In this document: positions 138 through 21,338 of the stretch, in pieces
How the letters are laid out: each line of letters starts with the position of its first letter
Position numbering within the stretch: position 1 is the first letter of the stretch
Source: Longivirga aurantiaca
GTDB lineage: Bacteria > Actinomycetota > Actinomycetes > S36-B12 > CAIYMF01
Direction: 5' to 3'
DNA: 32,000 bases
Assembly: GCF_042660085.1 (NCBI RefSeq)
Contig: NZ_JBHSTI010000008.1
Coordinates: 960,001-992,000, forward strand
Made by a program: the position numbers and the translations under genes
Notes under the pieces: model-generated
Database searches by the model: none
Seen by the model: only the letters and a program-made list of their open reading frames with translations
Told to the model about the DNA's origin: nothing

Positions 138-1058
138 TCAGCCGCGCAGCAGGTCGGCGAGCGCGCGCAGGCCGGATCCGTCCTCGCGCTCCCATCCGGC
201 CATCAGCTCCGGCAGGGGCGCGGGCAGCCGGCAGACGAGCCGGCGGTGCACGGGCCGGATCCGCAGCAGCCAGTCGCGGAGGTCGCGCAGGTCGGCACCC
301 CTCTCCGGCTCGACGTAGAGGCGTACGCCGTCGACGATCGACGACTCGTCCTCGATCCGCCGCATCGGGCAGGTCTCATGGGCCGCGAGCAGCGCAGCGC
401 GCGCGTCGCGGACCGTGTCGTGCAGCTGCTCCGGGCCCACGCCGTACGGGATCGCGGTGATCACGAGGTGCCCGCCCTCGGCGCGGATCGTGCTGTCGAC
501 CGTGAGCGTCACCTCTCGCCCGGCGCGAAGCCCCGCGAGGTCGCCACTGATCTCGCACCCGGTCGGCAGCGCGGGCGGGCCGAGGTCGGCGCGACCTGCC
601 AGCAGCGCACCCACCACCGACGCCGGGTCGTACGGCGGATGCGCTCCTCCGCGGAAGAGCGTGCCCTCCACCAGGCCGAGCGGGACGGGTCCGACCTCCT
701 GCCGCTCGGACGCGAGGGCGAGCGCCCCGACGGGGGAGAGCCGCACGTCGACCTGCTCCGGGTCGGCGGGCCCGGCGTCGCGCGAGCCGGCGTTGCCGAG
801 CAGCTCGACCAGCGGCAGGTGCACCGACCAGGGGACGCCTCGTCGCACGAGGCGGGCGTAGGCGTCGCGCGGGTCGGCCCCGCTCCGCTGCGCCACCACC
901 TGGAGCACGCGCGCGCAGACCACCGGCTCGCCGGCGTCGTCCGCACCGAGCAGGTCGACGGCGTCGAGCAGGGCGGCCTCGACCGAGTCGAGACCGGTGC
1001 GCGTGCTGACCACGACGTCCGTCACGGGGAGACGGTACGGCGAGGTGCCCTTCGTCAC
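138..1058 (-). CDS. Truncated GyrA/ParC N-terminal (breakage-reunion: winged-helix plus tower) homologue lacking the catalytic tyrosine; function unknown
   Basis: 306-aa ORF with a GTG start at 1058 and high GC3. It aligns by eye to E. coli GyrA residues ~40-340. ARVLQVV...DAYARLVRRG..HLPLVELLGNAGSRD matches SARVVGDV...AVYDTIVRMAQ..RYMLVDGQGNFGSID. LPTGCEISG...HLVITAIPYGVGPEQL matches FPTAAIING...IIVHEIPYQVNKARL. IEDESSIVDGVRLYVE matches LRDESDKDGMRIVIE. The HPHGD and AAMRYTE motifs are not conserved. Confidence 0.7.
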   Translation of the reverse strand: MTKGTSPYRLPVTDVVVSTRTGLDSVEAALLDAVDLLGADDAGEPVVCARVLQVVAQRSGADPRDAYARLVRRGVPWSVHLPLVELLGNAGSRDAGPADPEQVDVRLSPVGALALASERQEVGPVPLGLVEGTLFRGGAHPPYDPASVVGALLAGRADLGPPALPTGCEISGDLAGLRAGREVTLTVDSTIRAEGGHLVITAIPYGVGPEQLHDTVRDARAALLAAHETCPMRRIEDESSIVDGVRLYVEPERGADLRDLRDWLLRIRPVHRRLVCRLPAPLPELMAGWEREDGSGLRALADLLRG

Positions 1059-1137: not shown

Positions 1138-1356
1138 ATGACCAGCACCCTGCACCTTCCGCCCGCCGTCGAGCACGCCGCGCACGAGGTCGTCCACCAG
1201 GCAGGGGCCGTGACCCACCAGGTTGCCGTCGCCGCGCACGGGATGACCGATGCTGCGCACCACCTCGGCGATGCCGTCGTCGACGTGCTGCTGTCGCCGC
1301 TCACCCCCGACCTCGCCGACTTCCACGTCGAGTTCACCGAGGACGACATCCTCTGA
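1138..1356 (+). CDS. Small His-rich acidic protein (72 aa), no recognised family
   Basis: The ATG is preceded by a near-perfect SD (AAGGAGG, 5-nt spacer). 66 of 72 codons end in G or C, as in real genes of this window. It contains 10 His, many spaced as HxxxH or HH (AVEHAAHEVVHQ, AAHGMTDAAHHLGD). A hairpin follows it. Confidence 0.7.
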   Translation: MTSTLHLPPAVEHAAHEVVHQAGAVTHQVAVAAHGMTDAAHHLGDAVVDVLLSPLTPDLADFHVEFTEDDIL

Positions 1357-1400
1357 CCCGTCCGCCCTCCGGCGATTCGCCCCCGATCTGGTTGCCTCTC

Positions 1401-1445
1401 GCCGCGATTGGTCGTGAAGTAGCGACCAATCCGGGGCCAGATTCA
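1401..1445. repeat. Left copy of a ~45-bp inverted repeat flanking the DUF559 gene; contains a 9-bp hairpin and probably acts as a bidirectional terminator
   Basis: gccgcgattggtcgtgaagtagcgaccaatccggggccagattca. Internal stem 1406-1414 (gattggtcg) pairs with 1423-1431 (cgaccaatc), with an 8-nt loop. It matches the reverse complement of 2484-2528 at 35/45 positions. It lies between the convergent small ORF and the DUF559 gene, whose stop codon (1443-1445) forms the last 3 nt. Confidence 0.75.
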
Positions 1446-2405
1446 TCGGGTTCTCGCGTCCCTGAGCGCCTCGGTCACGCGTGCCACGACGCGTTGTGGC
1501 GCGCCCCACGTCTCGTCGGAGGTCCAGCGCACGAAGCGGTAGCCCATGCGTCGGAGCGAGTCCTCGCGCACCTTCTCCGCGCGGAGCGACTCGCGGTCGC
1601 GCAGTTTGCCCCATCCGTCTGCCTCGCCGATGACGCGCAGCGTGCGCCACAGGAAGTCCAGGGGGTAGCGTCGGCCGTCGTCGTCGACCACCCACGCCTG
1701 CAGCTCGGGACGGGGCAGATCGGCCTCGATGAACAGCCCCCTCGACGCCGACTCGAGCGGTGTCTCGGCAAGGCGGTCGGCCGCCTCGATCGCGCGCCGC
1801 AACCCCGCCCGGCCGTAGACGAACCGTGTCCGGTCGAGGGCCCCGTACAGGTCGCGCCGCGGCACGCTCCGGAGTGCCGCGTCGAGCACGACCAACGCCT
1901 CGGGGAGGGGCCGGAACCGAGCCAGGTCGATCGCGGTCCTCGCGACCGACGTCACCGGGAGTCCGTACGCCGCATGTCGGTCCTCCTCGGCGACGTCGGC
2001 GATCCACAGATGCGCTCCACGCATGATCCGGCCGTGCCGCGCACTGGTGATCTGCACCTCCTCCGGCACCCGCGGACCCGGCCTCATCGTCGGCTGATGC
2101 AGCAGCAGCCCGGCGGACTCGCGCGACACCCAGGCTTCGGCGTCCATGGCCGCGAGAATCCGCACCGCGAGGGCGACGTGGAGTTCGCGCTCGGCGAGAG
2201 GATCTCCACCGCTCCCGAGGCCCCTGTCGATCGGTACGCCGACCACGCCGTGCCGGAAGCGCACGAGGGTGCCGGCCTCGACCGCGGCGCGGACCTGGCC
2301 GCGCGTAAGTCCGGAGGCGAGGACGGCGGCCACGGGGTGCGGGCCCTCACCGAGCAGGGACAGGACCGCGGCGGCGGTCTCCTGGGTGCGATGGATGGGC
2401 GGCAC
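1443..2405 (-). CDS. AbiEi_4-like wHTH N-terminal domain fused to a DUF559 (Vsr/PD-(D/E)XK-like endonuclease fold) domain
   Basis: The N-terminus (GLTRGQVRAAVEAGTLVRFRHGVVGV) is typical of the AbiEi antitoxin-like wHTH. The C-terminus (YPLDFLWRTLRVIGEADGWGKL...EKVREDSLRRMGYRFVRWT) is the DUF559 core with D...E.DG..K. The start is uncertain: GTG at 2405 gives 320 aa, GTG at 2459 gives 338 aa. The upper part of the 546-aa track ORF is an out-of-frame extension over the GNAT gene. Confidence 0.8.
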   Translation of the reverse strand: MPPIHRTQETAAAVLSLLGEGPHPVAAVLASGLTRGQVRAAVEAGTLVRFRHGVVGVPIDRGLGSGGDPLAERELHVALAVRILAAMDAEAWVSRESAGLLLHQPTMRPGPRVPEEVQITSARHGRIMRGAHLWIADVAEEDRHAAYGLPVTSVARTAIDLARFRPLPEALVVLDAALRSVPRRDLYGALDRTRFVYGRAGLRRAIEAADRLAETPLESASRGLFIEADLPRPELQAWVVDDDGRRYPLDFLWRTLRVIGEADGWGKLRDRESLRAEKVREDSLRRMGYRFVRWTSDETWGAPQRVVARVTEALRDARTR

Positions 2406-2483
2406 GGCGTCATGGTGGGTGGGTCCGTCGTACCCCCGCTGCCGCCGTCCACAGGGCACCGGCCACCGGATCACTGGGGGGCG

Positions 2484-2528
2484 TGAATCTGCCCCCGGTT
2501 GGGTCGTGACTTCACAACACAACGCGCC
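2484..2528. repeat. Right copy (inverted) of the ~45-bp repeat flanking the DUF559 gene
   Basis: tgaatctgcccccggttgggtcgtgacttcacaacacaacgcgcc. Its reverse complement aligns without gaps to 1401-1445 (35/45 overall; 27/32 in the core 2484-2515 vs 1414-1445). Its own stem 2498-2506 / 2515-2523 gives 7 Watson-Crick pairs, 1 G-U and 1 mismatch on the minus-strand transcript. It sits in the divergent intergenic region between the DUF559 and GNAT genes. Confidence 0.75.
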
Positions 2529-2580
2529 GAGACACGACGAAATCGGGGGCAAGAGCCCGAGACGGCGCGGGTCCGGCAGG

Positions 2581-3441
2581 ATGTGCGGCGTGACGACGGC
2601 GACCGCGGGCGTGCTCCGCGTGCTCGGGCCGCGCGACCTCGCCGAGGTCCGCGCCCTGCTCGCCCGCGACCCGGTCTCGCACTGCTTCGTCGCCTCGCGC
2701 GTGCTCACCAGCGGCCTCGACACGTGGCGCATGGGCGGCGAGCTCTGGGGCTGGACCGAGGACGGCGAGCTCACCTCGCTGCTGTACCTCGGCGCCAACC
2801 TCGTCCCGGTGGAGACCACTCCCGAGGCCCGCCGCGCCTTCGCCGACCGGTGCCGCCGGATCGGACGCCGCTGCTCCTCGATCGTCGGCCCGTACGACGA
2901 CGTCGCCGTCCTCTGGTCGATGCTCGCCGACTCCTGGGGCCCGGCCCGCGACATCCGAGCGTCCCAGCCGGTCATGGTGATCGAGCGCGACGCACCCGTC
3001 CGCGTGCCTGCCGACCCGCTCGTGCGCCGCGTGCGCGAGGACGAGATCGACATCCTCATGCCCGCGTGCGTGGCGATGTTCACCGAGGAGGTCGGCGTCT
3101 CGCCCCTCGCCGGCGGCGGGGCCGACCCCTACCGCGCCCGTATCGCCGAGCTCGTCCGCTCGGGCCGCGCCTTCGCGCGGATCGAGGACGGCCGCGTCAT
3201 CACCAAGGCCGAGGTCGGGGCGGTCGGCGACGGCGTCTGCCAGGTGCAGGGCGTGTGGACCGCGCCCGAGCTGCGCGGCCGCGGGCTCGGGCTGGCCGCG
3301 ATGGGCCAGGTGGTGTCGCTGGCTCGCGAGATCACGCCCACGGTGAGCCTCTACGTCAACGACTTCAACGTCGTCGCGCGGCACGTCTACGAGCGCGTCG
3401 GCTTCCACCAGACGGCCACCTTCTCGACCGTCCTGTTCTGA
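2581..3441 (+). CDS. GNAT family N-acetyltransferase with a DUF4081-type N-terminal domain
   Basis: The C-terminal half carries the acetyl-CoA motif (QVQGVWTAPELRGRGLGLAAMGQVV...YVNDFNVVARHVYERVGF). The N-terminal half (LRVLGPRDLAEVRALLARDPVSHCFVASRV) resembles DUF4081. Start taken as ATG 2581; the upstream part of the 431-aa track ORF overlaps the minus-strand gene. Confidence 0.8.
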   Translation: MCGVTTATAGVLRVLGPRDLAEVRALLARDPVSHCFVASRVLTSGLDTWRMGGELWGWTEDGELTSLLYLGANLVPVETTPEARRAFADRCRRIGRRCSSIVGPYDDVAVLWSMLADSWGPARDIRASQPVMVIERDAPVRVPADPLVRRVREDEIDILMPACVAMFTEEVGVSPLAGGGADPYRARIAELVRSGRAFARIEDGRVITKAEVGAVGDGVCQVQGVWTAPELRGRGLGLAAMGQVVSLAREITPTVSLYVNDFNVVARHVYERVGFHQTATFSTVLF

Positions 3442-3487: not shown

Positions 3488-4738
3488 ATGCTGCACCGTC
3501 CCGCCTCCGACTCCCTGTGGGCGGACCGGGACTTCCGGCTCTACTGGGTCAGCCGCGTCATCTCGTACGCCGGCGGCACGATCACGTACGTCGCCGCGCC
3601 CATCCTGGTGTACGCGCTCACCGGTTCCGCGCTGCTCACCGGCGTCACCGCGGCGACGGAGGGGCTGCCGTACCTCCTGTTCGGCCTGTTCGCCGGCGCC
3701 CTGGCCGACCGCGTCGACCGCCGCCGGGTCATGGTCGGCTCCGACCTCATCAACGCGGTCGTCCTCGCGACCGTGCCGATCGCGGCCGCCCTCGGGCGGC
3801 TGACCGCGGCGCACGTCATCGTCGTCGGCCTCGTCACGATGACGGTCTTCGTCTTCTGGGACGCCGCCAACTTCGGCGCGGTGCCCACCCTCGTGGGCAG
3901 GGACCGCATCCGCGAGGCGAACAACGCCGTCTGGGGCGCGACCCAGGTGTTCGACGTCGTGCTCCCCGGCCTGGTCGGACTGGTCGTCGCCTGGCTGGCG
4001 CCGTCGACCCTCTACTGGGTCAACGCGTTCACGTTCCTCGCGAGCGCTTTCCTCGTCCGCGGGATCGTGCGCAACCTGTCGGGCGAGCGCGACCCCGACG
4101 CGGGCCGGCTGCGCGAGGACGTGCTCACCGGCCTGCGCTGGCTGTGGGGCCACACCACGCTGCGCACGATGACGTTCATCGGCACGACCGTGTCGTTCAG
4201 CATGGGCGCGGTCATGGGTCAGCTGGTGCCGTTCGCCGACCAGGTGCTCGGCATCCGGCAGGGCGACGTACGGCTCGGGGCGGTGTTCGCCGTCTTCAGC
4301 CTCGGCGGACTCGTGGGCACGCTCGCGAGCCGGTGGCTGCGGCCCTTCACCGCTGCCCGGGTGAGCCTCGTGAGCACGTCGTTCATGGCGGTGCTGATCG
4401 TGCTCATCCCGTGGCCGAGGGACTACCGCGTGACCTTCGTGCTCGTCTTCCTGTTCGGAGTCGCGAACCTCATCAGCGTCGTCAACAACATCACCTTCCG
4501 CCAGGAGGAGACGCCCGAGGACATGCAGAGCCGGGTCAACACCACCGGCCGGATGCTCAGCTGGGGCCTGGGCGCCCCGGCGGGCGCCCTCGTCGGCGGC
4601 ATCGTCGCGCACGCCTACGGCCCGGCGCTCGGGATGGCGTCCGGGAGCATCGTCGTCATCGTCGGCGTCGCGCTCGGATGGACCTCCTCGCTCGCCCGGA
4701 TCCCCGCCCGGCGAGATCTCGTACGCGACACCGCCTGA
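3488..4738 (+). CDS. MFS transporter (MFS_3 / EntS-like subfamily)
   Basis: About 12 hydrophobic segments. The motif [13 protein letters not shown] follows TM2. ATG 3488 has a GGAGGA SD 8 nt upstream; an alternative in-frame ATG lies at 3470. Confidence 0.85.
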
Positions 4739-4794: not shown

Positions 4795-6558
4795 GTGCTG
4801 CTCCGCATGTCGTCGCTGTTCCTGCGCACCCTGCGCGAGGACCCCGCGGACGCCGAGGTGCCGAGCCACAAGCTCCTCGTGCGTGCCGGCTACGTGCGCC
4901 GTGTCGCGCCGGGCATCTTCACCTGGCTGCCGCTCGGCTACACGGTCTACCGCAACGTCGAGCGCATCATCCGCGCCGAGATGGATGCGGCGGGCTTCCA
5001 GGAGGTGCACTTCCCGGCGCTGCTGCCCCGTGAGCCCTACGAGGCCACGAACCGCTGGACCGAGTACGGCGCCGGCCTGTTCCGTCTGCAGGACCGCCGC
5101 GGCAACGACTTCCTGCTCGGCCCCACGCACGAGGAGATGTTCACGCTCCTCGTGAAGGGCGAGTACTCGTCGTACAAGGACCTGCCGCTGTCGATCTACC
5201 AGATCCAGACGAAGTACCGCGACGAGGCGCGTCCCCGCGCCGGCATCCTGCGCGGCCGCGAGTTCGTGATGAAGGACTCCTACTCCTTCGACGTCGACGA
5301 CGCCGGCCTGCAGGTGTCGTACGACAAGCACCGCGCTGCCTACCAGTCGACGTTCGAGCGGCTCGGCCTCGACTACGTGATCGTGTCGGCGCAGTCCGGT
5401 GCGATGGGCGGCTCGGCGTCGGAGGAGTTCCTCGCGCCCTGCGAGAGCGGCGAGGACACCTATGTGCGCTGCACGTCGTGCGACTACGCGGCCAACGTCG
5501 AGGCCGTCGTCACGCCCGTGCCCGACGCGGTCCCGTACGCCGATGCGCCCGCGGCCCACGTGGAGGACACGCCCGACACCCCCACGATCGACACGCTCGT
5601 GGCGGCCGCGAACGCCGACCACGCACGCCCCGACCGCGCCTGGACGGCGGCCGACACGCTGAAGAACGTCGCGTTCCTGGTGGCGCTGCCCGACGGCACG
5701 TCGTACCCCCTCGTCGTCGGCCTGCCCGGCGACCGCGAGGTCGACATGAAGCGCCTCGAGGCCGTGCTGCAGCCCGGCGAGCCCACGCCGATGGACGACG
5801 TCGAGCTGAAGAAGCACCCGCTCATCGTGAAGGGCTACCTCGGCCCCGAGGTGCTCGGCGAGGAGTCCGCGAGCGGCATCCGCTACGTCGTCGACCCGCG
5901 CGTGGTCGAGGGCACCCGGTGGATCACCGGCGCCAACGTGCACGGCAAGCACGTGTTCGACCTGGTCGCCGGTCGCGACTTCACGCCCGACGGCACGATC
6001 GAGGCCGCCGAGGTGCTGCCCGGCGACGTCTGCCCGCGGTGCGCGTCGGCGCTCGAGCTGGCCCGCGGCATCGAGATCGGCCACATCTTCCAGCTCGGTC
6101 GCAAGTACGCCGAGGCGCTCGACCTCAAGGTGCTCGACGAGAACGGCAAGCAGCAGGTCGTCACGATGGGCTCGTACGGCATCGGTGTCTCGCGCGCGGT
6201 CGCCGCGATCGCCGAGCAGAGCTTCGACGAGCTCGGCCTGTGCTGGCCGCGCGAGGTCGCGCCCGCCGACGTCCACCTGGTGGCCACCGGCAAGGACCAG
6301 GCCGTCTACGAGTATGCCGAGACCCTCGCCGCGGGCCTCGTGGCCCAGGGGCTGCGCGTGATCCTCGACGACCGCAAGCAGGCCTCGCCCGGGGTGAAGT
6401 TCAAGGACTCCGAGCTCGTCGGCGTCCCGACCATCGTCGTGGTCGGCAAGGGCCTCGTGGACGGTGTCGTCGAGCTCAAGGACCGCAAGTCCGGCCAGCG
6501 TGCCGAGCTCGCCGCCGACGGTGCGCTCGACGCGATCGTCGCGGCCTGCCGCGCATGA
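4795..6558 (+). CDS. proS: Proline--tRNA ligase (bacterial type with INS editing domain)
   Basis: (V)[48 protein letters not shown] matches the ProS N-terminus. Class II motifs are present ([37 protein letters not shown]). GTG 4795 has a GGAGA SD 5 nt upstream. The 5' 1.3 kb of the 1013-aa track ORF is read-through over the MFS gene. Confidence 0.95.
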
Positions 6559-9946: not shown

Positions 9947-10570
9947 GTGGCTGCACAGCCGCCTCGTCCCGCGAAGGGCCGTCCCCAGGGCGGATCCCGC
10001 CGCCCGGACCCTGCCCGCCGCGATGCCCAGGTCCAGCAGGTGGTCGCACTCCTCGAGCCCGCCGTGCAGGCGACCGGCGTCGATCTCGAGGACGTCGAGA
10101 TCCGCACGGTCGGCCGTCGCATCGTCGTCCGTGTGCTGGTCGACTCCGAGACCGGCGTGAGCCTCGACCAGGTGGCAGCGGCCTCCACCGCCGTCTCCGA
10201 GGCCCTCGACACCGACGACCCGTTCGGCGACGAGCCCTACACCCTCGAGGTGTCCTCGCCGGGCGTCGAGCGGCCCCTCACCCTGCCGCGCCACTGGCGC
10301 CGCAGCATCGGCCGCCTCGTCGCCGTCACCACCACCCAGCACGAGCAGGTCACGGGCCGCATCACCTCGGTGTCCGACACCGAGGTCGAGCTCGAGATCG
10401 ACGTGAAGGGCCGCACCAGCCGCCGGACCGTGGCGCTCGCCGACATCACCAAGGCGGTCGTGCAGGTCGAGTTCAGCCGCAAGGGCGAGCCCGAGCCCGA
10501 CGACACGACCGACGACGCCGACGGCGACGACGACGCAGACGAGCTCGACGACCAGGACGAGGAGGACTGA
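9947..10570 (+). CDS. rimP: Ribosome maturation factor RimP, with a polyacidic C-terminal tail
   Basis: [17 protein letters not shown]...[24 protein letters not shown] is the RimP core. GTG 9947 has an AGGAGG SD 6 nt upstream. It lies immediately upstream of nusA. Confidence 0.9.
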
Positions 10571-10571
10571 C

Positions 10572-11570
10572 GTGGACATCGACGTCAGCGCACTGAAGGC
10601 GCTCGTCCGTGAGAAGGAGCTGTCGTACGACCTCATCGTCGAGACGCTCGAGCAGGCGATGCTCCTCGCGTACCACAAGACCGAGGGCTCGGCGCAGCGC
10701 GCACGGGTCGAGGTCGACCGCAAGACGGGTCACGTCATCGTGTGGGCCCGCGAGGACGACGTCGACGGCGTCCCGGGTCGCGAGTACGACGACACGCCGG
10801 ACGGCTTCGGCCGTGTCGCCGCCACGACCGCCCGCCAGGTGATCCTGCAGCGCCTGCGCGAGGCCGAGGACGACGTCACCTTCGGGGAGTTCGCCGGCAC
10901 CGAGGGGGACCTCGTGTCGGGCATCGTGCAGCAGGGCAGCGACCCGCGGCTCGTGTTCGTCGACCTCGGCAAGATCGAGGCCGTCCTTCCGCCGCAGGAG
11001 CAGGTGCCGGGCGAGAAGTACGTCCACGGAACGCGCCTCAAGTGCCACGTGGTGCAGGTGTCCAAGACGCCCAAGGGTCCGCGCGTCACCGTCTCGCGCA
11101 CGCACCCCAACCTCGTGAAGGCGCTGTTCGCCCTCGAGGTGCCCGAGATCGCCGACGGCTCGGTGCAGATCGCGGCGATCGCCCGCGAGGCCGGCCACCG
11201 CACGAAGATGGCCGTCTACTCGAACGTGCCCGGGCTCAACGCCAAGGGCGCGTGCATCGGCCCGATGGGTGCCCGGGTGCGCGCGGTCATGGCCGAGCTG
11301 CACGGCGAGAAGATCGACATCGTCGACTGGTCGGACGACCCGGCCGAGATGGTCGGCAACGCTCTGTCACCGGCGCGGGTCACCTCGGTGACCGTCGTCG
11401 ACCTCGCCGCCCGCTCCGCCCGCGTCGTCGTGCCGGACTACCAGCTGAGCCTCGCGATCGGCCGCGAGGGCCAGAACGCCCGGCTCGCCGCCCGCCTCAC
11501 CGGCTGGCGGATCGACATCCGGCCCGACACCGCGACGACGGGGCCGGACGACACCGGACGCGAGGCGTGA
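10572..11570 (+). CDS. nusA: Transcription termination/antitermination factor NusA (no AR1/AR2 repeats)
   Basis: The NTD, S1 ([10 protein letters not shown]) and KH1/KH2 ([36 protein letters not shown]) are present. GTG 10572 lies 1 nt after the rimP stop and is preceded by GAGGAGGA. Confidence 0.95.
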
Positions 11571-11677
11571 TCGGCGGGGGCGCCGGAGGGGTAGACTTCC
11601 CCACGACCGGTAGCCCGGTTCCCCCTGACGCCGCCCCGCGCGGTGCAGGCGCGCCCTCCCGCGGGCGTCGCACCCCG

Positions 11678-11992
11678 GTGCGTACGTGCGTGGGGTGCAG
11701 GGAGCAGGGCGGCCGATCCGACCTGGTGCGCGTGGTCGTGGTCGACGGACTCCTCGTCCCCGACCCCCGGGCGCGCGCCGCCGGACGAGGTGCCTGGCTG
11801 CATCCCGACCCGGTATGTCTCGACCTCGCCGAGCGACGGCGGGCGCTGCCGCGGGCCCTCCGGGTCCCCGGCCCGCTCGACACCCGCGCGGTGCGGGACG
11901 AGATCGAACGGCGAGCAGCACGACCAGCACCATCAGAACTGACCACCGTCCACCCACGATCGGGAGCAGAACAGGACATGAGCACCCGATGA
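11678..11992 (+). CDS. ylxR: YlxR/DUF448 family RNA-binding protein
   Basis: (M)RTCVGCREQGGRSDLVRVVV...GRGAWLHP...CLDLAERRRALPRALR is the YlxR signature. Start chosen at GTG 11678. The in-frame GTG at 11567 (GTGA overlap with the nusA stop) adds 37 codons with markedly lower GC3 (8 of 37 end in A/T). The last 26 codons are also atypical (15 end in A). Confidence 0.75.
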   Translation: MRTCVGCREQGGRSDLVRVVVVDGLLVPDPRARAAGRGAWLHPDPVCLDLAERRRALPRALRVPGPLDTRAVRDEIERRAARPAPSELTTVHPRSGAEQDMSTR

Positions 11993-12070: not shown

Positions 12071-14866
12071 GTGTCGAAGGTCCGGGTCTACGAGCTCGCC
12101 AAGGAGCTCGGAGTCGAGAGCAAGGCCGTCGTGGCCAAGCTCCAGGAGATGGGTGAGTTCGTCCGATCGGCGAGCTCCACCATCGAGGCGCCGGTGGTCC
12201 GGCGTCTTCGGGAGGCGTTCCCCGCCGCCCCGGCGGCCGCCCCCAGCAAGGCACCCGCCAAACCCAAGCCCGCCCCCGCGGCACCGGCTGCCCCCGCGGC
12301 GCCCGAGGCCCCGGCGGCTCCCGCTGCTGCCGCACCCGAGGCGCCCGCCGCCCCGGCTGCTCCGGCTGCGCCCGTGCCCGGTCCGGCGGCCCCCGCCGCC
12401 CCGGCAGCGCCCGAGGTCTCGGCCCCGGCCGCGTCGGCGGCACCCGCGCCGGCCGCCCCCAAGGCGCCGCGTCCCGGCAACAACCCGTTCATGGACCGCA
12501 GCGCCGAGGCGCCGCCGCGTCCGGCCGCCCCCGCGGCGCCCGGTGCCGCGCCCGGCGCCCCGCGTCCGGCGCGTCCGGGCAACAACCCCTTCACCGACCG
12601 CACCGGCGGCGTCGAGGGCGCACCGCGCCCCGTCCCGCGTCCCGGCGGCGTCCCCGGTGCCCCGCGTCCCAACCCGGGCATGATGCCGGGCCAGCGCCCG
12701 GGACGTCCCGCAGGTCCCGGCCGTCCGGCCGGCCCCGGCGGTCCCGGTGCCGGTCGTCCGGCCCCCGGCGGCGCAGGCCGTCCCGGTGGCGGCGCAGGCC
12801 GTCCCGGTGGCGGCGGCTTCGGCGCACGTCCCGGCGGTGCTCCCGGCGGTGGCGGCGGCGGATTCGCCGGTCGTCCCGGCGGTGCTCCCGGCGGCGGCGG
12901 CTTCGGCGGTCGGCCCGGTGCCGGTGGTCGTGGCACCACCGCGGGTGCGTTCGGCCGTCCCGGCGGCAAGCCGGCGCGCGGTCGCAAGTCCAAGCGTGCG
13001 AAGCGCCAGGAGTTCGACAACATGTCGGCTCCGTCCATGGGCGGCGAGATCCGTCCCATGGGCCAGGGCCAGACCATCCGTCTGGCGCGCGGCTCGTCCC
13101 TGACGGACTTCAGCGAGAAGGTGGGCGTGCCCGCGGGCGTGCTCGTCACCGTGATGTTCAAGCTCGGCGAGATGGTGACCGCGACCCAGTCGCTGTCCGA
13201 CGACACGCTGATGCTGCTCGGCACCGAGCTGAACTTCGACGTCCAGGTGATCAGCCCGGAGGACGAGGACCGCGAGCTGCTCGAGCGCTACGACCTCGAG
13301 TTCGGTGAGGACGAGGGTGACGAGTCCGACCTCGTCGCGCGTCCGCCGGTCGTCACGGTCATGGGTCACGTCGACCACGGAAAGACCCGCCTGCTCGACG
13401 CGATCCGCAACACGAACGTGATGGGCAAGGAGGCCGGTGGCATCACCCAGCACATCGGCGCCTACCAGGTCGTGGCCCGTGCCGACAGCGACGCGCCCCG
13501 CGCCATCACCTTCATCGACACCCCGGGTCACGAGGCGTTCACCGCCATGCGTGCTCGTGGTGCCCAGGTCACCGACATCGCCATCCTCGTGGTGGCGGCC
13601 GACGACGGCGTGAAGCCGCAGACGATCGAGGCGCTCAACCACGCCAAGGCCGCCGACGTGCCGATCGTGGTCGCGGTCAACAAGATCGACAAGGAGGGCG
13701 CGGACCCGGCCAAGGTGCGCGGCCAGCTCACCGAGTACGGCCTCGTCCCCGAGGAGTACGGCGGCGACACGATGTTCGTCGACGTCTCCGCCAAGGGCGG
13801 GATCGGCATCGACGAGCTGCTCGAGGCCCTCCTGCTCACGGCCGACGCCGCCCTGGACCTGCGGGCCAACCCGCACCAGGACGCGCAGGGCGTGTCGATC
13901 GAGGCCCACCTCGACCGTGGCCGTGGCCCGGTCGCGACGGTGCTCGTCCAGCGCGGCACGCTGCGCCCGGGCGACTCGATCGTGGTCGGCGACGCCTACG
14001 GCCGCGTGCGCGCCATGCTCGACGAGCACGGCAACACGCTCGAGGAGGCGCTGCCCGCGCGTCCGGTGCAGGTGCTCGGCCTCACGGCCGTGCCCGGCGC
14101 CGGCGACAACATGCTCGTGGTCGAGGACGACCGCACCGCCCGTCAGATCGCCCAGACCCGTGCGGCGCGCGAGCGCAACGCGGCGCTGGCGCAGGCGCGC
14201 GGCCGCCGTACCCTCGAGGACTTCCTCAAGTCCCTCGAGCGCGGCGAGGTCGAGGAGCTCAAGCTCATCCTCAAGGGCGACGTGTCCGGCTCGGTCGAGG
14301 CGCTCGAGAGCGCGCTCGTCGCGCTCGACATCAGCGAAGAGGTCAGCCTGCGCGTCATCGACCGCGGTGTCGGTGCGATCACGCAGAACGACGTCAACCT
14401 GGCCGTCGCGTCCGACGCCGTCATCATCGGCTTCAACGTCCGGCCGGCCGAGCGGGTGCAGGAGATCATCGACCGCGAGCGCGTCGACGTCCGCTACTAC
14501 TCGGTCATCTACCAGGCGATCGACGACGTCGAGGCGGCCCTCAAGGGTCTGCTCAAGCCGGTCTACGAGGAGGTGGCTCTCGGCACCGCCGAGATCCGCG
14601 AGGTCTACCGCTCGAGCAAGTTCGGCAACATCGCCGGCTCGCTCGTGCGCACGGGCCTCATCCGCCGCAACGCCAAGGCGCGCCTCCTGCGCGACGGTGC
14701 GGTCGTGGCGGACAACCTCACCATCGAGTCGCTGAAGCGGTTCAAGGACGATGCCACCGAGGTCCGCGAGGGCTTCGAGTGCGGTATCGGCCTCGGCTCG
14801 TTCAACGACGTCAAGGTCGACGACGTGATCGAGACCTTCGAGATGCGCGAGAAGCCGCGCGTCTGA
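12071..14866 (+). CDS. infB: Translation initiation factor IF-2
   Basis: [31 protein letters not shown] (IF2_N). A ~280-aa Pro/Ala/Gly-rich linker follows. Then the GTPase domain ([28 protein letters not shown]) and C-terminal domains. GTG start with an AGGAGA SD. Confidence 0.97.
12770..12811 (+). repeat. Perfect 21-bp tandem duplication inside the infB low-complexity linker
   Basis: ggcgcaggccgtcccggtggc occurs at 12770-12790 and again at 12791-12811 (encoding GGAGRPG twice). It is followed by two longer imperfect copies encoding F(G/A)(A/G)[11 protein letters not shown]. Confidence 0.85.
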
Positions 14867-15251: not shown

Positions 15252-15842
15252 ATGGCCGACCCCGCCCGCGCCCGCAAGCTCGCCGACCGCATCAAGGTGA
15301 TCGTCGCGGAGACGCTCGAGCAGCGCATCAAGGACCCGCGCGTCGGCTTCCTCACCATCACCGACTCGCGGGTCACCGGCGACCTCCATGACGCGACGGT
15401 CTACTACACCGTCTACGGGTCCGACGAGGAGAAGGCCGGCACCGCCGCCGCGCTCGAGAGCGCCAAGGGCGTGCTGCGCAGCGAGATCGGCAAGCAGACC
15501 GGCGTGCGGTTCACCCCCACGCTCACCTTCGTCGCCGACGCCGTGCCCGAGAACGCCGCCGCGATCGAGGACCTCCTCGCCGTCGCGGCCGCAGCCGACG
15601 CCGAGGTGCACGAGAAGGCCGCCGCCGCGCAGTACGCGGGCGAGGCCGACCCCTACAAGAAGCCGCGCGACCTCGAGGACGACGACGCAGGGGACGCAGA
15701 GGACGCAGAGGTCGACGAGGACGACGACGAGGACGACGAGGCCGGTGACGAGCTCGAGGACGACCTCGACGACCTCGACGGGCTCGAGGACGACCTCGAC
15801 GACCTCGAGGAGCTCATCGAGGACGAGGAGCGCCAGGCGTGA
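15252..15842 (+). CDS. rbfA: 30S ribosome-binding factor RbfA, with a ~60-aa polyacidic C-terminal extension
   Basis: [49 protein letters not shown]...PTLTFVAD is the RbfA core. The tail is D/E-rich ([54 protein letters not shown]). Confidence 0.93.
15752..15808 (+). repeat. 30-bp-period tandem duplication in the rbfA acidic tail
   Basis: gctcgaggacgacctcgacgacctcga occurs at 15752-15778 and identically at 15782-15808 (encoding [10 protein letters not shown] and [10 protein letters not shown]). Confidence 0.85.
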
Positions 15843-19368: not shown

Positions 19369-20569
19369 GAGCCCCGAGGTCCGTGCCACCGAGAGGTGGT
19401 TCATCCGGCAGGGCCTCCCGCTGTTCGTCGAGGAGTACTCCGCCGGCCGCGACGTCTGGACGCGCGCGGTCCCGGCGCTGGTGGCGCTGTTCGTGCTCAG
19501 CGTCGTCACGACCATCGGAGGCGCCCGCACCCTCGGCGGGGGCCTGGCCCTGGCCGGCGGGGTGGCTGTCGCGCTGGGCGGCTACGTCCTGCTCAACCGG
19601 CGGGCGGGCCGCCCGGCGCTCGCGCTGCCCCAGCACCTGGGCCTGGGCTGGGTCGGCGCGTTCGTCCTCGTCCCCTCCCTGCTCACCCTCCTCGCCGAGC
19701 GCGACCTCGCGCTGTTCCTCAGCAGCCTCGTCGGCGGCGTCCTCCTCCTCGGCCTCGTGTACGTCGTGACGCGGTACGCCCTCGTCGCACAGGTGTCGTG
19801 GGCGCTGCGCTGGACCTTCCGCCGGCTCTCGAGCGTGACGCGGCTCATCACCCGCGTGCTCCCGCTGATGCTGCTGTTCATCACGTTCCTGTTCATCAAC
19901 ACCGAGGTGTGGCAGGTCGCGGGCACGATGAACGCGGCGGTGCTGTGGGGGAGCCTCGCCGTCTTCGCCGCCGTCGGGGTGCTGTTCATCGTCGGCCGCA
20001 GCCGCGAGGAGTTCGGCGGCATCGAGGTGAGCACCGACCGCGACGAGGTGCTCGTGCTCACCCAGGGCACGCCGATCGCCGACGTGGCCCCCGGGCTGGA
20101 CGACCTCGAGGTGCCGGTGGCCATCCGGCGGAGCCAGCGGGCCAACCTCGTCGCCGTGATGGTCACGGCCCAAGCCGTCCAGGTGGCCCTCGTCGGCATC
20201 GTGGTCTGGGCGTTCTTCGTGCTCTTCGGCTCGGTCGCGATCAGCATCCCCGTGCAGGAGGCGTGGCTCGGGTCCCTGGCCCCGATCGAGAATCTCGTGC
20301 CGCTGTGGGACGGTCACGGCGTCACCCGCCAGCTGCTGCGCGTCGCGACGTTCCTGGGGGGCTTCGCCGCCTTCTACGCCACGGTCTACGCCGCCAACGA
20401 CGGCGTCTACCGGGAGAACTTCGTGGCCCGGATCAGCTCGACCGTGGAGCGGGCGGTGGCGGTCCGCCGGGCCTACGTCGCCCTCCGCCGTCGCGAGGGA
20501 CTGCCTGTCGACGTCCCGGTCGAGCGGCACACGCACCCCGTGGGCCACCACGACGAGCTCGACGACTGA
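19361..20569 (+). CDS. Integral membrane protein of unknown function (~8 predicted TM segments)
   Basis: 402-aa ORF with gene-like GC3. Hydrophobic segments include AVPALVALFVLSVV, LALAGGVAVALGGYVLL, WVGAFVLVPSLLTLL, LSSLVGGVLLLGLVYVV, LPLMLLFITFLFI, LWGSLAVFAAVGVLFIV, VALVGIVVWAFFVLFGSV and FLGGFAAFYATVYAA. The GTG start overlaps the ribF 3' end by 8 nt. I do not recognise the family. Confidence 0.7.
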   Translation: MAESPEVRATERWFIRQGLPLFVEEYSAGRDVWTRAVPALVALFVLSVVTTIGGARTLGGGLALAGGVAVALGGYVLLNRRAGRPALALPQHLGLGWVGAFVLVPSLLTLLAERDLALFLSSLVGGVLLLGLVYVVTRYALVAQVSWALRWTFRRLSSVTRLITRVLPLMLLFITFLFINTEVWQVAGTMNAAVLWGSLAVFAAVGVLFIVGRSREEFGGIEVSTDRDEVLVLTQGTPIADVAPGLDDLEVPVAIRRSQRANLVAVMVTAQAVQVALVGIVVWAFFVLFGSVAISIPVQEAWLGSLAPIENLVPLWDGHGVTRQLLRVATFLGGFAAFYATVYAANDGVYRENFVARISSTVERAVAVRRAYVALRRREGLPVDVPVERHTHPVGHHDELDD

Positions 20570-21053: not shown

Positions 21054-21338
21054 GCTCACCCGCACTCCGGTAGAACCGTGAGTGCACGCACGACCCACAA
21101 CTGAACACGCGCCGCTGAAGACCAGCGCGCGACACCAGGGAAGATCGTGGGGCGACCGCCCCGGAGAAGCCCACAGTCGTCGGTCCTCGGTAGTGGCATC
21201 CGGGCACGTCGCCCCCCGCGCAGGAGCGGGAGCGGCTGGCAGCCCGGGCGCTTCGATCGAAGACCGGCCTCCTGCCGACTGCAGGCCTGCTCCAAGCGCT
21301 CGCCCCTCGACGTCCCACGACGTACGAGGAGGGCACCC
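21054..21338 (+). promoter_or_regulatory. Long structured pnp leader, at the location described for the Actino-pnp RNA motif / PNPase autoregulatory leader
   Basis: 285 nt of non-coding sequence with several local hairpins. These include 21062-21086; ggggcg/cgcccc at 21149-21162; the cttcgatcgaag palindrome at 21251-21262; and gcaggcctgc at 21281-21290. A possible stem (21302-21309 with 21325-34) covers the SD AGGAGGG at 21327-21333. The motif assignment rests on position, not on a covariance-model match. Confidence 0.45.

Follow-up and report, generated by a model that had tools for sequence, protein, structure and literature searches.

Lineage-specific palindrome pairs flank AbiEi–DUF559 nuclease genes and may be binding sites of the proteins themselves

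In the 32-kb stretch of Longivirga aurantiaca DNA considered here (hereafter the window), a gene that appears to join an AbiEi-like wHTH to a DUF559 nuclease is enclosed by two copies of an inverted repeat. A first-pass annotation made from the sequence alone saw in this arrangement the terminal inverted repeats of a small mobile cassette, and offered as alternatives that the repeats are operators for the protein's own wHTH domain, that they pair the 5′ and 3′ ends of the mRNA, or that they belong to a genome-wide REP-like terminator family. This raises the question of what the repeats are, and of why they accompany this gene.

The inverted repeat is confirmed as genuine, and it is longer than the 45 bp originally described. 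The earlier counts were reproduced exactly, both for 1401–1445 against the reverse complement of 2484–2528 (35/45 identical) and for the core, 1414–1445 against 2484–2515 (27/32), and the ungapped match runs on to 1379–1445 against the reverse complement of 2484–2550, where 52 of 67 positions are identical. When both flanks were shuffled 300 times, the best 67-mer match was 36 and no shuffle attained 52; compared in direct orientation, the copies agree at only 23/45 positions. Each copy also holds a hairpin, as had been noticed, formed on the left by an inner stem (Table 1) and on the right by 22-nt arms (2490–2511 and 2530–2551) with 82% complementarity, and folding z-scores of the copies are −2.3 to −3.6. 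The 45-bp repeat is the core of two ~70-bp composite palindromes, one upstream (U) and one downstream (D) of the gene. Degenerate patterns made from either repeat half found no copy in the 32-kb window beyond these two (chance expectation 0.01). An Rfam 15 scan of the whole window at the gathering score gave no match at the repeats, returning only Actino-pnp and Guanidine-II elsewhere, and a sigma-70 promoter and T-tract terminator scan, uninformative at 73% G+C, gave no promoters and two weak terminator-like sites in U.

Table 1. Features of the nuclease locus, in window coordinates.
Feature	Position	Strand	Remark
72-aa ORF	1138–1356	+	convergent on nuclease gene; no family match
Downstream (D) palindrome copy	1377–1447	.	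between convergent 72-aa ORF and nuclease gene
D outer half-stem GCCCCCG	1379–1385		
D degenerate half-site	1386–1396		
D inner hairpin ATTGGTCGTG / AAGT / AGCGACCAAT	1407–1416 / 1421–1430		
D outer half-stem CCGGGGC	1431–1437		
D gene-proximal tail CAGATTCA	1438–1445		contains stop codon
AbiEi-like module + Vsr/DUF559 PD-(D/E)XK nuclease, 320 aa	1443–2405	-	GTG start 2405, TGA stop 1443–1445
-10-like hexamer CACCAT	2412–2417	-	-12 to -7 from start codon; putative function
Conserved motif TGTGGAC	2447–2453	-	-48 to -42 from start; between U and promoter
Upstream (U) palindrome copy	2482–2552	.	ends 29 nt short of divergent GNAT start
U tail TGAATCTG	2484–2491		gene-facing
U half-sites, GTCGTG-type			two direct, one inverted
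DUF4081/GNAT acetyltransferase gene	2581–3441	+	divergent from nuclease gene

The copies are placed with respect to the gene as first reported, the left one containing the TGA stop codon and the right one lying upstream of the candidate starts. Because the true start is GTG 2405, the right copy ends 78 nt before it; this start is assigned because its MPPIHR N-terminus is conserved and the frame is shifted between orthologues farther upstream, and the same two observations rule out GTG 2474 and GTG 2459. The gene is monocistronic, with a convergent neighbour on one side and a divergent neighbour on the other. The promoter region of the GNAT gene overlaps or abuts the U element. No gene for a DUF1814 (AbiEii) toxin was found, either in the window or among the annotated neighbours of the family loci. 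Of 17 distinct family loci whose starts align well, 12 have a −10-like CANNNT hexamer (A−11, T−7) 7 nt ahead of the start codon, and this pattern implies a putatively leaderless mRNA starting at the GTG. Most palindrome-bearing loci have TGTGGA at a position between −46 and −54; TGTGG is found within −130 to 0 in 29/38 of them, the background rate being 0.1 per 130 nt.

The proposed fusion is upheld by Pfam, PADLOC and Foldseek, which agree on an AbiEi-like module (wHTH plus AbiEi C-terminal domain; approximately residues 20–215) followed by a DUF559/Vsr-like nuclease domain (approximately residues 215–320). The window protein matches DUF559 and MTES_1575 in Pfam, DUF559 at 21.6–21.7 bits (cut-off 20.6) and with 39/40 family members also matching; PADLOC AbiEi HMMs span residues 30–215 (E = 2.8e-8); and the AlphaFold model (pLDDT 92) retrieves AbiEi 6y8q (E = 8.5e-5), I-Bth0305I 3r3p, Vsr 1cw0 and 3hrl in Foldseek. 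Pfam AbiEi_4 is matched by 30/40 family members, the window protein falling below the cut-off, and NCBIfam has no model for the protein. The nuclease domain superimposes on 3r3p with a TM score of 0.77–0.79 (normalised to 3r3p) and an rmsd of 2.8, and a profile search matches 3hrl at E = 5.6e-5 with DF and EADG of the DF...EADG motif aligned. Residues E214, E218, S219, S221, D250, G260-E261-x-D263-G264 and K267 are invariant, and the predicted catalytic motif (D...E-x-D-G) is intact. No domains other than AbiEi-like and DUF559 ones were found in the protein, and hence no transposase domain of the DDE, HUH, serine recombinase or tyrosine recombinase kind.

The same architecture recurs across the AbiEi–DUF559 fusion family, which numbers 4,167 cluster representatives at E ≤ 1e-30. 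Among 74 homologous loci with both flanks, 43 have matched palindromes on either side of the gene, scored as a repeat between the two flanks that exceeds the 99th percentile of a null drawn across loci. Their arms have a median length of 26 bp and their spacers of 14 nt; the median distance from the end of U to the start codon is 58 nt, and that from the stop codon to the beginning of D is −1 nt. Each copy comes close to a perfect palindrome, and stem positions are ~92% Watson–Crick across palindromes that are otherwise unrelated in sequence, being matched within a locus and different between lineages. The relative orientation of U and D varies, direct comparison scoring higher in some loci (L038, L059, L061, L027, L035, L057, L037) and inverted comparison in others (the window type, L077, L056, L101, L084). 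Repeat, gene and repeat do behave as one unit, as the first-pass annotation supposed: both copies are kept in orthologues at 74–98% protein identity, and distant homologues have matched palindrome pairs of their own. In Nakamurella, arrays of a short palindrome lie on either side of the nuclease gene. Nakamurella leprariae (GCA_016918035.1), with locus L112, is a cultured carrier of a family gene. Many family contigs are merely 1.1–2 kb long, because the palindromes break short-read assemblies right at the gene.

The arms of these palindromes are constrained as sequence, beyond structure alone. U and D are 0.84 identical in their arms and only 0.61 in their loops, which are largely randomised, so that in most loci the element as a whole has not been copied recently. 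The four arms of a locus change in concert: within one locus they are ~0.89 identical, and between orthologous loci arms are 0.71–0.83 identical. A GTCG[CT] core is present in 41% of arms versus 13% of the background. The U element of the window and its orthologous copy in L021 are 93% identical, non-pairing positions included, compared with 76% for the gene interior. Mismatches in the stems show no G·U strand bias, with transversion-type changes as common as transition-type ones, and the inner hairpin covaries within the window clade.

Few copies were found away from the gene. A scan of 185,579 species genomes yielded, among the matches listed, the pattern in one related representative MAG, GCA_050251215.1, and one chance match, in Corynebacterium and inside a coding region; the MAG has three matches, two of them flanking copies and one solo. 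Across 304 kb of family flanks there are only 3 extra palindrome copies, and outside the cassette the 74 kb of window-type sequence (the window plus L104 and L105, relatives represented by 21-kb loci) contain none. Solo copies with an intact asymmetric tail occur in L022, L034 (twice) and L035; that of L022 lies between convergent genes, and one of those in L034 falls between the purL stop codon and the point where the following gene starts. One MAG encodes two paralogues, each with its own palindrome type. Other long palindromes occur in these genomes at about one per 10–20 kb; they are unrelated, and in the long loci no second paralogue lies beside them.

The nuclease gene keeps to a single chromosomal location (ispG/GNAT), and it evolves more rapidly than the genes beside it. 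In the family as a whole there are three or more such sites, namely ispG/GNAT, mpa/trmI and that of L034, where the nuclease gene is at 9989–11029 and def and purL are in the locus. Cassettes with similar interiors in every case have outside flanks that resemble each other still more closely, meaning that they have been passed on vertically at a fixed locus; the orthologous position persists down to ~45–53% protein identity, and in one lineage 10 independent metagenome contigs have the gene in identical orientation and position. An inversion switch was also considered and rejected, since the promoter lies inside the bracket and those 10 contigs show a single orientation. An empty site exists in the ispG–GNAT interval of a relative (L108/L109), where both gene and palindrome are missing; thus the repeats belong with the gene. 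The relative in question is distant (GNAT 69% identical), such that ancestral absence and loss are indistinguishable. The family is absent from the phage collection searched, and the plasmid collection gave a single distant match, a Tsukamurella (pseudo)plasmid record with housekeeping genes and without flanking palindromes. By eye, the ends of the window's element have no obvious target-site duplication.

Among the three alternatives first put forward, operators appear to fit best. We suggest, with roughly even confidence, that the palindromes are the protein's own binding sites, flanking its transcription unit for autoregulation or insulation. The suggestion is favoured because arms and spacers have the same geometry as in published AbiEi operators, AbiEi recognising two inverted repeats of 23 bp with 3 bp between them and Rv2827c binding 23-bp repeat pairs 13 bp apart, one monomer per repeat (PMC7319586). 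The family-wide bracket and the complete AbiEi-like module are consistent with it, as are the sequence constraint on the arms, their fixed positions and the tie between palindromes and gene. The AbiEi-like module would bind the palindromes as in AbiEi operators, one monomer per ~23–26-bp arm, with the upstream pair of sites just 5′ of the promoter, in the promoter region of the divergent neighbour, and the second pair on the stop codon. Protein at both ends might connect them, as a bridge or a loop spanning the whole transcription unit, or might keep outside transcription from entering, and a potentially harmful nuclease would in this way be kept tightly autoregulated and insulated. The D copy probably doubles as a hairpin terminator between the convergent genes. 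The unit probably entered the ispG/GNAT interval once and has been inherited vertically since, and the protein and its four arms would have co-evolved quickly.

The likeness to AbiEi antitoxins of type IV AbiE TA systems (S. agalactiae AbiEi, M. tuberculosis Rv2827c) extends to the wHTH plus AbiEi C-terminal domain, to lineage-specific site sequences, and to paired inverted repeats of ~23 bp, separated by a short spacer, beside the promoter of the gene itself (PMC7319586), the sites here being predicted ones. The AbiEi family is represented by COG5340 and by the Pfam entries PF13338, PF09407 and PF17194. AbiEi genes, however, stand in an operon with an AbiEii (DUF1814) toxin, while the window gene is instead fused to a Vsr/DUF559 nuclease; and, unlike in AbiEi systems, its upstream site (U, roughly −80 to −145) lies 5′ of the core promoter with no overlap, and a second matching pair of sites lies on the stop codon. 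We know of no characterised AbiEi system in which a second operator is placed precisely where a 1-kb gene ends. Also weighing against the operator reading, autoregulation explains neither the solo copies at non-promoter places (L022, L034) nor the presence of an invariant nuclease domain, and change of all four arms by point mutation and selection alone would be slow; a copying mechanism may be involved.

Copying is central to a second explanation, which we consider somewhat doubtful, namely that the palindromes are REP/RAYT-like or self-maintaining. The nuclease would act on its own palindromes, possibly as cruciforms or hairpins; repair of the nick or cut would copy one arm, or one palindrome, onto another, homogenising the arms and occasionally seeding solo copies; and the gene would be the vertically inherited partner of a small palindrome population. 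In REP/REPIN–RAYT systems, a vertically inherited single-copy gene is flanked by cognate palindromes, the repeat types are specific to each paralogue, and the repeats number tens to hundreds of copies. Here, likewise, a nuclease-type gene that is vertically inherited is flanked by cognate palindromes, effectively single-copy per type; the two paralogues in one MAG have distinct types; and occasional intergenic copies keep their asymmetric tail. The concerted change of all four arms, the invariant nuclease motif, the fact that the nearest solved nuclease folds are those of a homing endonuclease and the mismatch nickase Vsr, and the arrays around the Nakamurella gene are also in its favour. Against it stand the tiny copy numbers (3 in the MAG; 3 extra per 304 kb; 0 in 74 kb outside the cassette), with 2–4 copies per genome region rather than dispersal in many, the randomised U and D loops, and a wHTH plus PD-(D/E)XK protein in place of the HUH Y1 transposase; the hosts, moreover, are Actinobacteria, and cutting of the palindromes by the nuclease is purely hypothetical.

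The part of this scheme that concerns the enzyme can be stated more narrowly. A sequence-targeted, Vsr-like nickase or nuclease acting on arm mismatches or cruciforms of its own palindromes could, through gene conversion, keep the arms of a locus identical while lineages diverge fast, and leave solo copies; we regard this too as doubtful. The C-terminal domain shares its fold with I-Bth0305I (an EDxHD/Vsr-like homing endonuclease), E. coli Vsr and the DUF559 protein NGO0050 (3hrl), and with the last of these also the DF...E-A-D-G motif. The window gene differs in being free-standing, outside any intron or intein, its product has an AbiEi module fused to it, and no partner cytosine methyltransferase is encoded nearby.

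That the repeats are the ends of an active mobile cassette, a transposon or homing cassette whose protein binds them and excises or moves the unit, now seems quite unlikely. The unit is compact, its repeats abut the promoter and the stop codon, the family occupies several chromosomal sites and the empty ispG–GNAT site is free of palindromes. Nucleases of the PD-(D/E)XK type are used by Tn7 (TnsA) and include homing endonucleases, a point in favour of the cassette to which the 3r3p fold match lends support. The first-pass proposal nevertheless fails on the more-alike flanks of every similar cassette pair, the depth to which orthologous position is kept, the uniform metagenome contigs, the phage absence and plasmid near-absence, the variable orientation of the copies, and the want of a strand-transfer enzyme or a visible target duplication. 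Insertion sequences with terminal inverted repeats and the IS200/IS605 group, with subterminal hairpins, are likewise compact, with structured repeats at both ends and one of them reaching the stop codon; unlike them, the window unit has no transposase of any known class and no sign of recent movement, and the IS200/IS605 reading was rejected on its defining features. Integron attC cassettes share an imperfect palindrome of ~60–70 nt right after the stop codon and an ORF between two such sites. The R′/R″ core consensus sequences of attC are GTTRRRY and RYYYAAC. By eye no such cores are present at the element ends, which are GCCCCCG/CGGGGGC or lineage-specific, and no integron integrase is among the called genes of the loci examined; unlike integron cassettes, moreover, the cargo is always of the AbiEi–DUF559 family and has its own promoter. 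An attC/integron origin was rejected on these three grounds.

The remaining two proposals are, like the active transposon, poorly supported. That matching hairpins at the two ends of the mRNA pair with each other or stabilise the transcript we judge very unlikely: because D overlaps the stop codon its transcription is certain, and it forms a strong hairpin, the arms are complementary across lineages and the inner hairpin covaries, but with a gene that appears leaderless U would lie outside the transcript, making 5′/3′ pairing unlikely, and the mismatches have no sense-strand G·U bias, the repeats no Rfam match, and hairpin function alone does not require U and D to share sequence. Highly improbable, finally, is a chance association with a generic genome-wide REP or terminator family, for which one could cite the position of D, and of one solo copy, between convergent genes, where a terminator is expected, and the frequency of other long palindromes, but which is at odds with the scarcity of copies in all our scans (flanking copies only in the window and in relatives' 21-kb loci), the position of U between divergent genes, the missing T-tract, and a pairing with the gene that recurs in 43/74 loci with a lineage-specific sequence each time.

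Those portions of the literature on DUF559, MTES_1575, AbiEi and REP/RAYT that we consulted contain no description of a palindrome-bracketed AbiEi–DUF559 architecture. The family thus gains a concrete cis-partner, a lineage-specific palindrome pair that appears to co-evolve with the protein, and with it several questions become testable: what the AbiEi-like module targets, why a nuclease is tethered to it, and how diverging arms stay matched. A practical effect is that short-read assemblies are broken by the palindromes exactly at AbiEi–DUF559 genes. If the palindromes are indeed operators at both ends of the gene, they would represent an unusual walling-off of a dangerous gene. If the nuclease instead acts on them, this would be a second, independent invention of the REP/RAYT type of relationship, and the partnership of nuclease and palindrome would be of a new kind in Actinobacteria, functionally analogous to REPIN/RAYT systems but assembled from unrelated components.

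The inverted repeat reported by the first-pass annotation (1401-1445 against the reverse complement of 2484-2528, 35/45, with 27/32 in the core) was exactly reproduced on realignment and is longer than first noted, matching without gaps at 52 of 67 positions between 1379-1445 and 2484-2550; the best 67-mer match across 300 shuffles of both flanks was 36. Patterns from either repeat half match only these two sites in the 32 kb of the window (0.01 expected by chance). Both copies, here U (upstream) and D (downstream), are hairpin-prone on their own, as had been stated, and they bracket the nuclease gene, the TGA of which indeed lies inside D (see table). U is upstream of the gene as proposed, ending 78 nt before the GTG start; the longer candidate starts once considered are ruled out because a 98%-identical homologue is likewise 320 aa long, the N-terminus MPPIHR is conserved, and orthologues differ by a 1-nt indel directly upstream.

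Features of the window and of related loci (L numbers: loci from metagenome contigs, MAGs and genomes used in comparison)
Locus	Feature	Coordinates	Strand	Details
Window	306-aa ORF	138-1058	-	PRK05561 (NCBIfam) E=1.9e-8, far under cut-off; DNA_topoisoIV (Pfam) E=1.5e-3
Window	72-aa ORF	1138-1356	+	no family match
Window	D	1377-1447
Window	nuclease gene	1443-2405	-	GTG start 2405, TGA stop 1443-1445
Window	CANNNT hexamer	2412-2417
Window	TGTGGA(C/T)	2447-2453
Window	U	2482-2552
Window	DUF4081/GNAT gene	2581-3441	+
Window	GAC/GAG-rich stretch	15708-15806		imperfectly palindromic
Window	Guanidine-II (mini-ykkC) match	15754-15798		36.1 bits, gathering score 32
Window	Actino-pnp leader	21179-21268		57.8 bits
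L002	contig end	3462
L004	hairpin			GGTACCCGC...GTCGTCACC
L013	contig end	1455
L014	hairpin			GCTGCGCAAAACGTCGTATCC
L015	hairpin			TCTGCGAATCCGTCGTTTCC; stems 96%
L015	17-nt palindromes	3840-3856, 5033-5049		ATGAAGGCGACCTTCAT / ATGAAGGTCGCCTTCAT
L029, L034	59-nt palindrome	13587-13645 (L029), 19522-19580 (L034)		TTCCGGATGAATGTGGCAGGACTCCGC-TCTT-...
L034	nuclease gene	9989-11029
L034	extra copies	5407-5473, 11407-11467
L035	extra copy	1558-1619
L108	Fic/VbhA pair	10871-11678
L112	duplicated 87-nt unit	11075-11250		short palindrome (TGCGCCGGTGATCCGGGGCGCAGGCTGTTGATCGGGGCCGCAGCAGATGCTG.GGGTCGGTGGGTGCTGCGCCGCAGTTGTGCGACT), then GGGGCGCGGCTGCACA repeats

The protein had been described as an AbiEi-like wHTH fused to DUF559, and Pfam, PADLOC and Foldseek together support both halves. 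DUF559 scores 21.6 bits (threshold 20.6) in the window protein, with MTES_1575 sub-threshold; across 40 family members Pfam finds DUF559 in 39, MTES_1575 in 32 and AbiEi_4 in 30. PADLOC AbiEi models span residues 30-215, i.e. the wHTH and the AbiEi C-terminal domain. The AlphaFold model (40-sequence alignment as input) has a pLDDT of 92; Foldseek matches its N-terminal two thirds to Streptococcus agalactiae AbiEi (6y8q) and its C-terminal domain to the catalytic domain of the homing endonuclease I-Bth0305I (3r3p; TM 0.77-0.79, rmsd 2.8), as well as to Vsr and the DUF559 protein 3hrl. Nuclease residues invariant across the family are E214, E218, S219 and S221 (ESPLESxSRG), D250 (DF) and G260-E261-A-D263-G264 with K267, a signature that aligns with the DF...EADG core of 3hrl. 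Neither an AbiEii toxin gene nor a methyltransferase was found near the nuclease gene in the window or in annotated neighbourhoods of relatives. The family is very large, comprising 4,167 cluster representatives (50% identity) at E<=1e-30; it has no match in the phage collection and only one in the plasmid collection, a so-called plasmid bearing housekeeping genes.

In orthologues L001-L003 (98, 77 and 74% protein identity), as in L021, L104 and L105, the neighbouring genes are unchanged and both repeat copies are present; at 45-53% identity (L004, L014, L015) two matched long hairpins also bracket the gene, quite different in sequence from those of the window. We compared the 250-nt flanks of 74 family loci (one metagenome scan plus loci found earlier); at 43 of them the two flanks matched each other with scores (15-47) exceeding the 99th percentile of a cross-locus null (threshold 14.5). 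The elements are near-perfect palindromes with median arms of 26 bp and spacers of 14 nt; median distances are 58 nt from the end of the upstream one to the start codon and -1 nt from the stop codon to the beginning of the downstream one. The direct orientation of the two copies outscores the inverted in L038, L059, L061, L027, L035, L057 and L037, and the inverted outscores the direct in the window type, L077, L056, L101 and L084; therefore the family trait is two palindrome copies, not terminal inverted repeats. In L015, a paralogue at an mpa/trmI site, 17-nt palindromes ~18 nt outside each long hairpin extend the flank-to-flank repeat to ~93 nt. Contigs carrying family members are often just 1.1-2 kb long and stop at a palindrome or within one (L013; L002, within the loop of D); the palindromes evidently break short-read assemblies, hiding the gene's context in metagenomes.

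Of the 31 palindrome-less loci, most fall in a more distant subfamily that conserves another upstream region. In L051, L055, L062, L066, L069, L076, L085 and L089 (33-37% identical to the window protein) this is a ~70-nt stretch ~75 nt upstream of the gene (ATATCACC..AAACGCACGCC..ACCGGGCAAATCGGACAG.AAAGCGGCCGTTTCGTATGAAATGTCAG), possibly a cis element of a different kind. In the cultured Nakamurella leprariae (L112), whose family member is more distant again, arrays of a short palindrome (GCGCCnGnGATCCGGGGCGC) lie on both gene flanks, and the remaining 20 kb of the locus lacks this palindrome; downstream of the gene an 87-nt unit is tandemly duplicated.

Within a locus the four arms are ~0.89 identical, against 0.71-0.83 for arms of orthologous loci, and lineage-specific substitutions repeat in all four (GGGCAG in L064, GGACGG in L097). 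Between U and D, arm identity is 0.84 and loop identity only 0.61, so their likeness is upheld in the arms rather than left over from recent copying of an entire element. Next to the loop, 41% of arms have a GTCG[CT] core (background 13%); the arms are thus homologous family-wide, with hypervariable outer parts. In the window clade U is 93% identical, unpaired positions included, between orthologues whose genes are 76% identical, and D is conserved much less. Elements of the window type have three half-sites resembling GTCGTG, one of them inverted relative to the other two, and the variable tetranucleotides of these partly covary. If the nuclease acted on the palindromes, as part of a REP/RAYT-like or self-homogenising system, this would account for the four arms changing together, the role of the invariant nuclease and the solo copies described below; the tiny copy numbers and the diverged U/D loops speak against such a system, and we consider it unlikely, though the strongest of the alternatives.

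The position between DUF4081/GNAT and ispG is common to the window clade, L004, L014, L024, L025, L027, L031-L033, L039 and L111, loci whose palindromes are mutually unlike. In every pair of cassettes (gene plus both palindromes) with similar interiors, conservation is higher beyond the palindromes than between them (interiors 74% and flanks 81-86% for L064/L097; 70% and 84-90% for L057/L058; 71% and 83-90% for L004/L032); the unit is hence inherited vertically, and it evolves faster than its housekeeping neighbours. The first-pass proposal of terminal inverted repeats of a mobile cassette, as an active element, is thus improbable, given also the varying orientation of the copies. A second site lies between mpa and trmI (L015, L026, L028) and a third in L034, a locus with def and purL, and one MAG holds two paralogues with two palindrome types; whole units were thus duplicated or moved in the distant past. 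An empty site also occurs: in a relative with a 69%-identical GNAT the ispG-GNAT gap is 96 nt, with neither gene nor palindrome, suggesting that the palindromes arrived together with the gene. The same relative (L108) carries an inserted Fic/VbhA toxin-antitoxin pair that separates GNAT from the MFS gene; the neighbourhood takes small insertions at several intergenic points. Confined to the window clade (L001, L021, L104, L105), two adjoining ORFs, the 306-aa one weakly similar to the N-terminal part of GyrA/ParC, separate ispG from the cassette; in L004 and L014 the cassette directly abuts ispG.

Most palindrome-bearing loci carry TGTGGA(C/T) at about -48 from the start. The motif, as (C)TGTGGA(C/T)G, is kept even where palindromes are unrelated (L015, L029, L034, L037, L038, L040, L043, L057, L058, L068 and others) and is reversed (TCCACAG) in some loci; it resembles a CRP-type half-site, and a 16-bp site starting there would centre at about -41, with no second half-site conserved. 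A CANNNT hexamer (A-11, T-7) occupies -12 to -7 in 12 of 17 well-aligned loci. In actinobacterial leaderless genes such a hexamer puts the transcription start at the start codon. The mRNA is thus predicted to be leaderless, with U upstream of the promoter and outside the transcript and D in the transcript's 3' end. U is also 1-80 nt from the divergent GNAT start in syntenic loci and therefore may affect that promoter too. Among some 50 distinct palindromes ~92% of stem positions are Watson-Crick; sense-strand G.T is not in excess among mismatches (10 vs 14 in U, 18 vs 16 in D) and transversion-type mismatches are as common as transition-type, so selection on a strand-specific RNA is not apparent from these counts. 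Pairing of the mRNA 5' and 3' ends, raised earlier, is on both grounds very unlikely.

Elsewhere in the window, Rfam finds a clear Actino-pnp leader and a Guanidine-II match that may be spurious, as the stretch around it resembles acidic coding repeats.

Searching 185,579 species genomes for a degenerate 20-base pattern gave, among the matches listed, three in a related MAG of the Nanopelagicales: the two that flank the gene (L021) and a solo copy (L022) with obgE on one side and a small convergent ORF on the other; a Corynebacterium match inside a coding region is a chance one. The 304 kb of DNA flanking the 43 palindrome-bearing loci hold only three extra copies, two in L034 and one in L035; in the window, as in two 21-kb loci from close relatives, there are none besides the flanking ones; with hardly any copies away from the gene, a generic genome-wide REP or terminator family is the least credible proposal. 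Extra copies bracket small neighbours, a 110-aa ORF before purL (L034) and a 93-aa ORF (L035), and a further copy lies in a divergent def/ABC-ATPase promoter region. The remaining long palindromes of these genomes bear no sequence relation to those of the cassettes, and most have 3-7 nt loops, as ordinary terminators do. An unrelated near-perfect 59-nt palindrome, far from the cassettes and conserved between two contigs of one metagenome (L029, L034), is a candidate terminator or may represent a different repeat family.

In published AbiEi operators a 3-bp gap separates two inverted repeats of 23 bp; in those of Rv2827c, paired 23-bp repeats are spaced by 13 bp. Each repeat takes one monomer, and there is no binding by non-cognate proteins (PMC7319586). 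The family palindromes, likewise paired repeats, share this geometry, stand beside the promoter of a gene for an AbiEi-like module and change in step with this fast-evolving protein, so it is most economical to take them as putative binding sites of the protein itself. We give about even chances to a fuller scheme, the functional steps of which we infer: the AbiEi-like module would bind the palindromes beside its own promoter; with the second matching site on the stop codon the sites would bracket the whole transcription unit; bound protein would bridge or loop the nuclease gene, or insulate it as a roadblock; and D would double as a terminator between convergent genes. Reading the palindromes as own binding sites does not explain how the four arms change together, what the invariant nuclease does or why there are solo copies. 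Full-text searches of openly accessible literature returned no description of AbiEi-DUF559 genes with flanking palindromes. Relative to AbiEi-type protein/operator pairs, what is new is the fused nuclease and the second matching, gene-bracketing site on the stop codon, and there is a moderate chance that the finding is something more unusual than a variant of that type.
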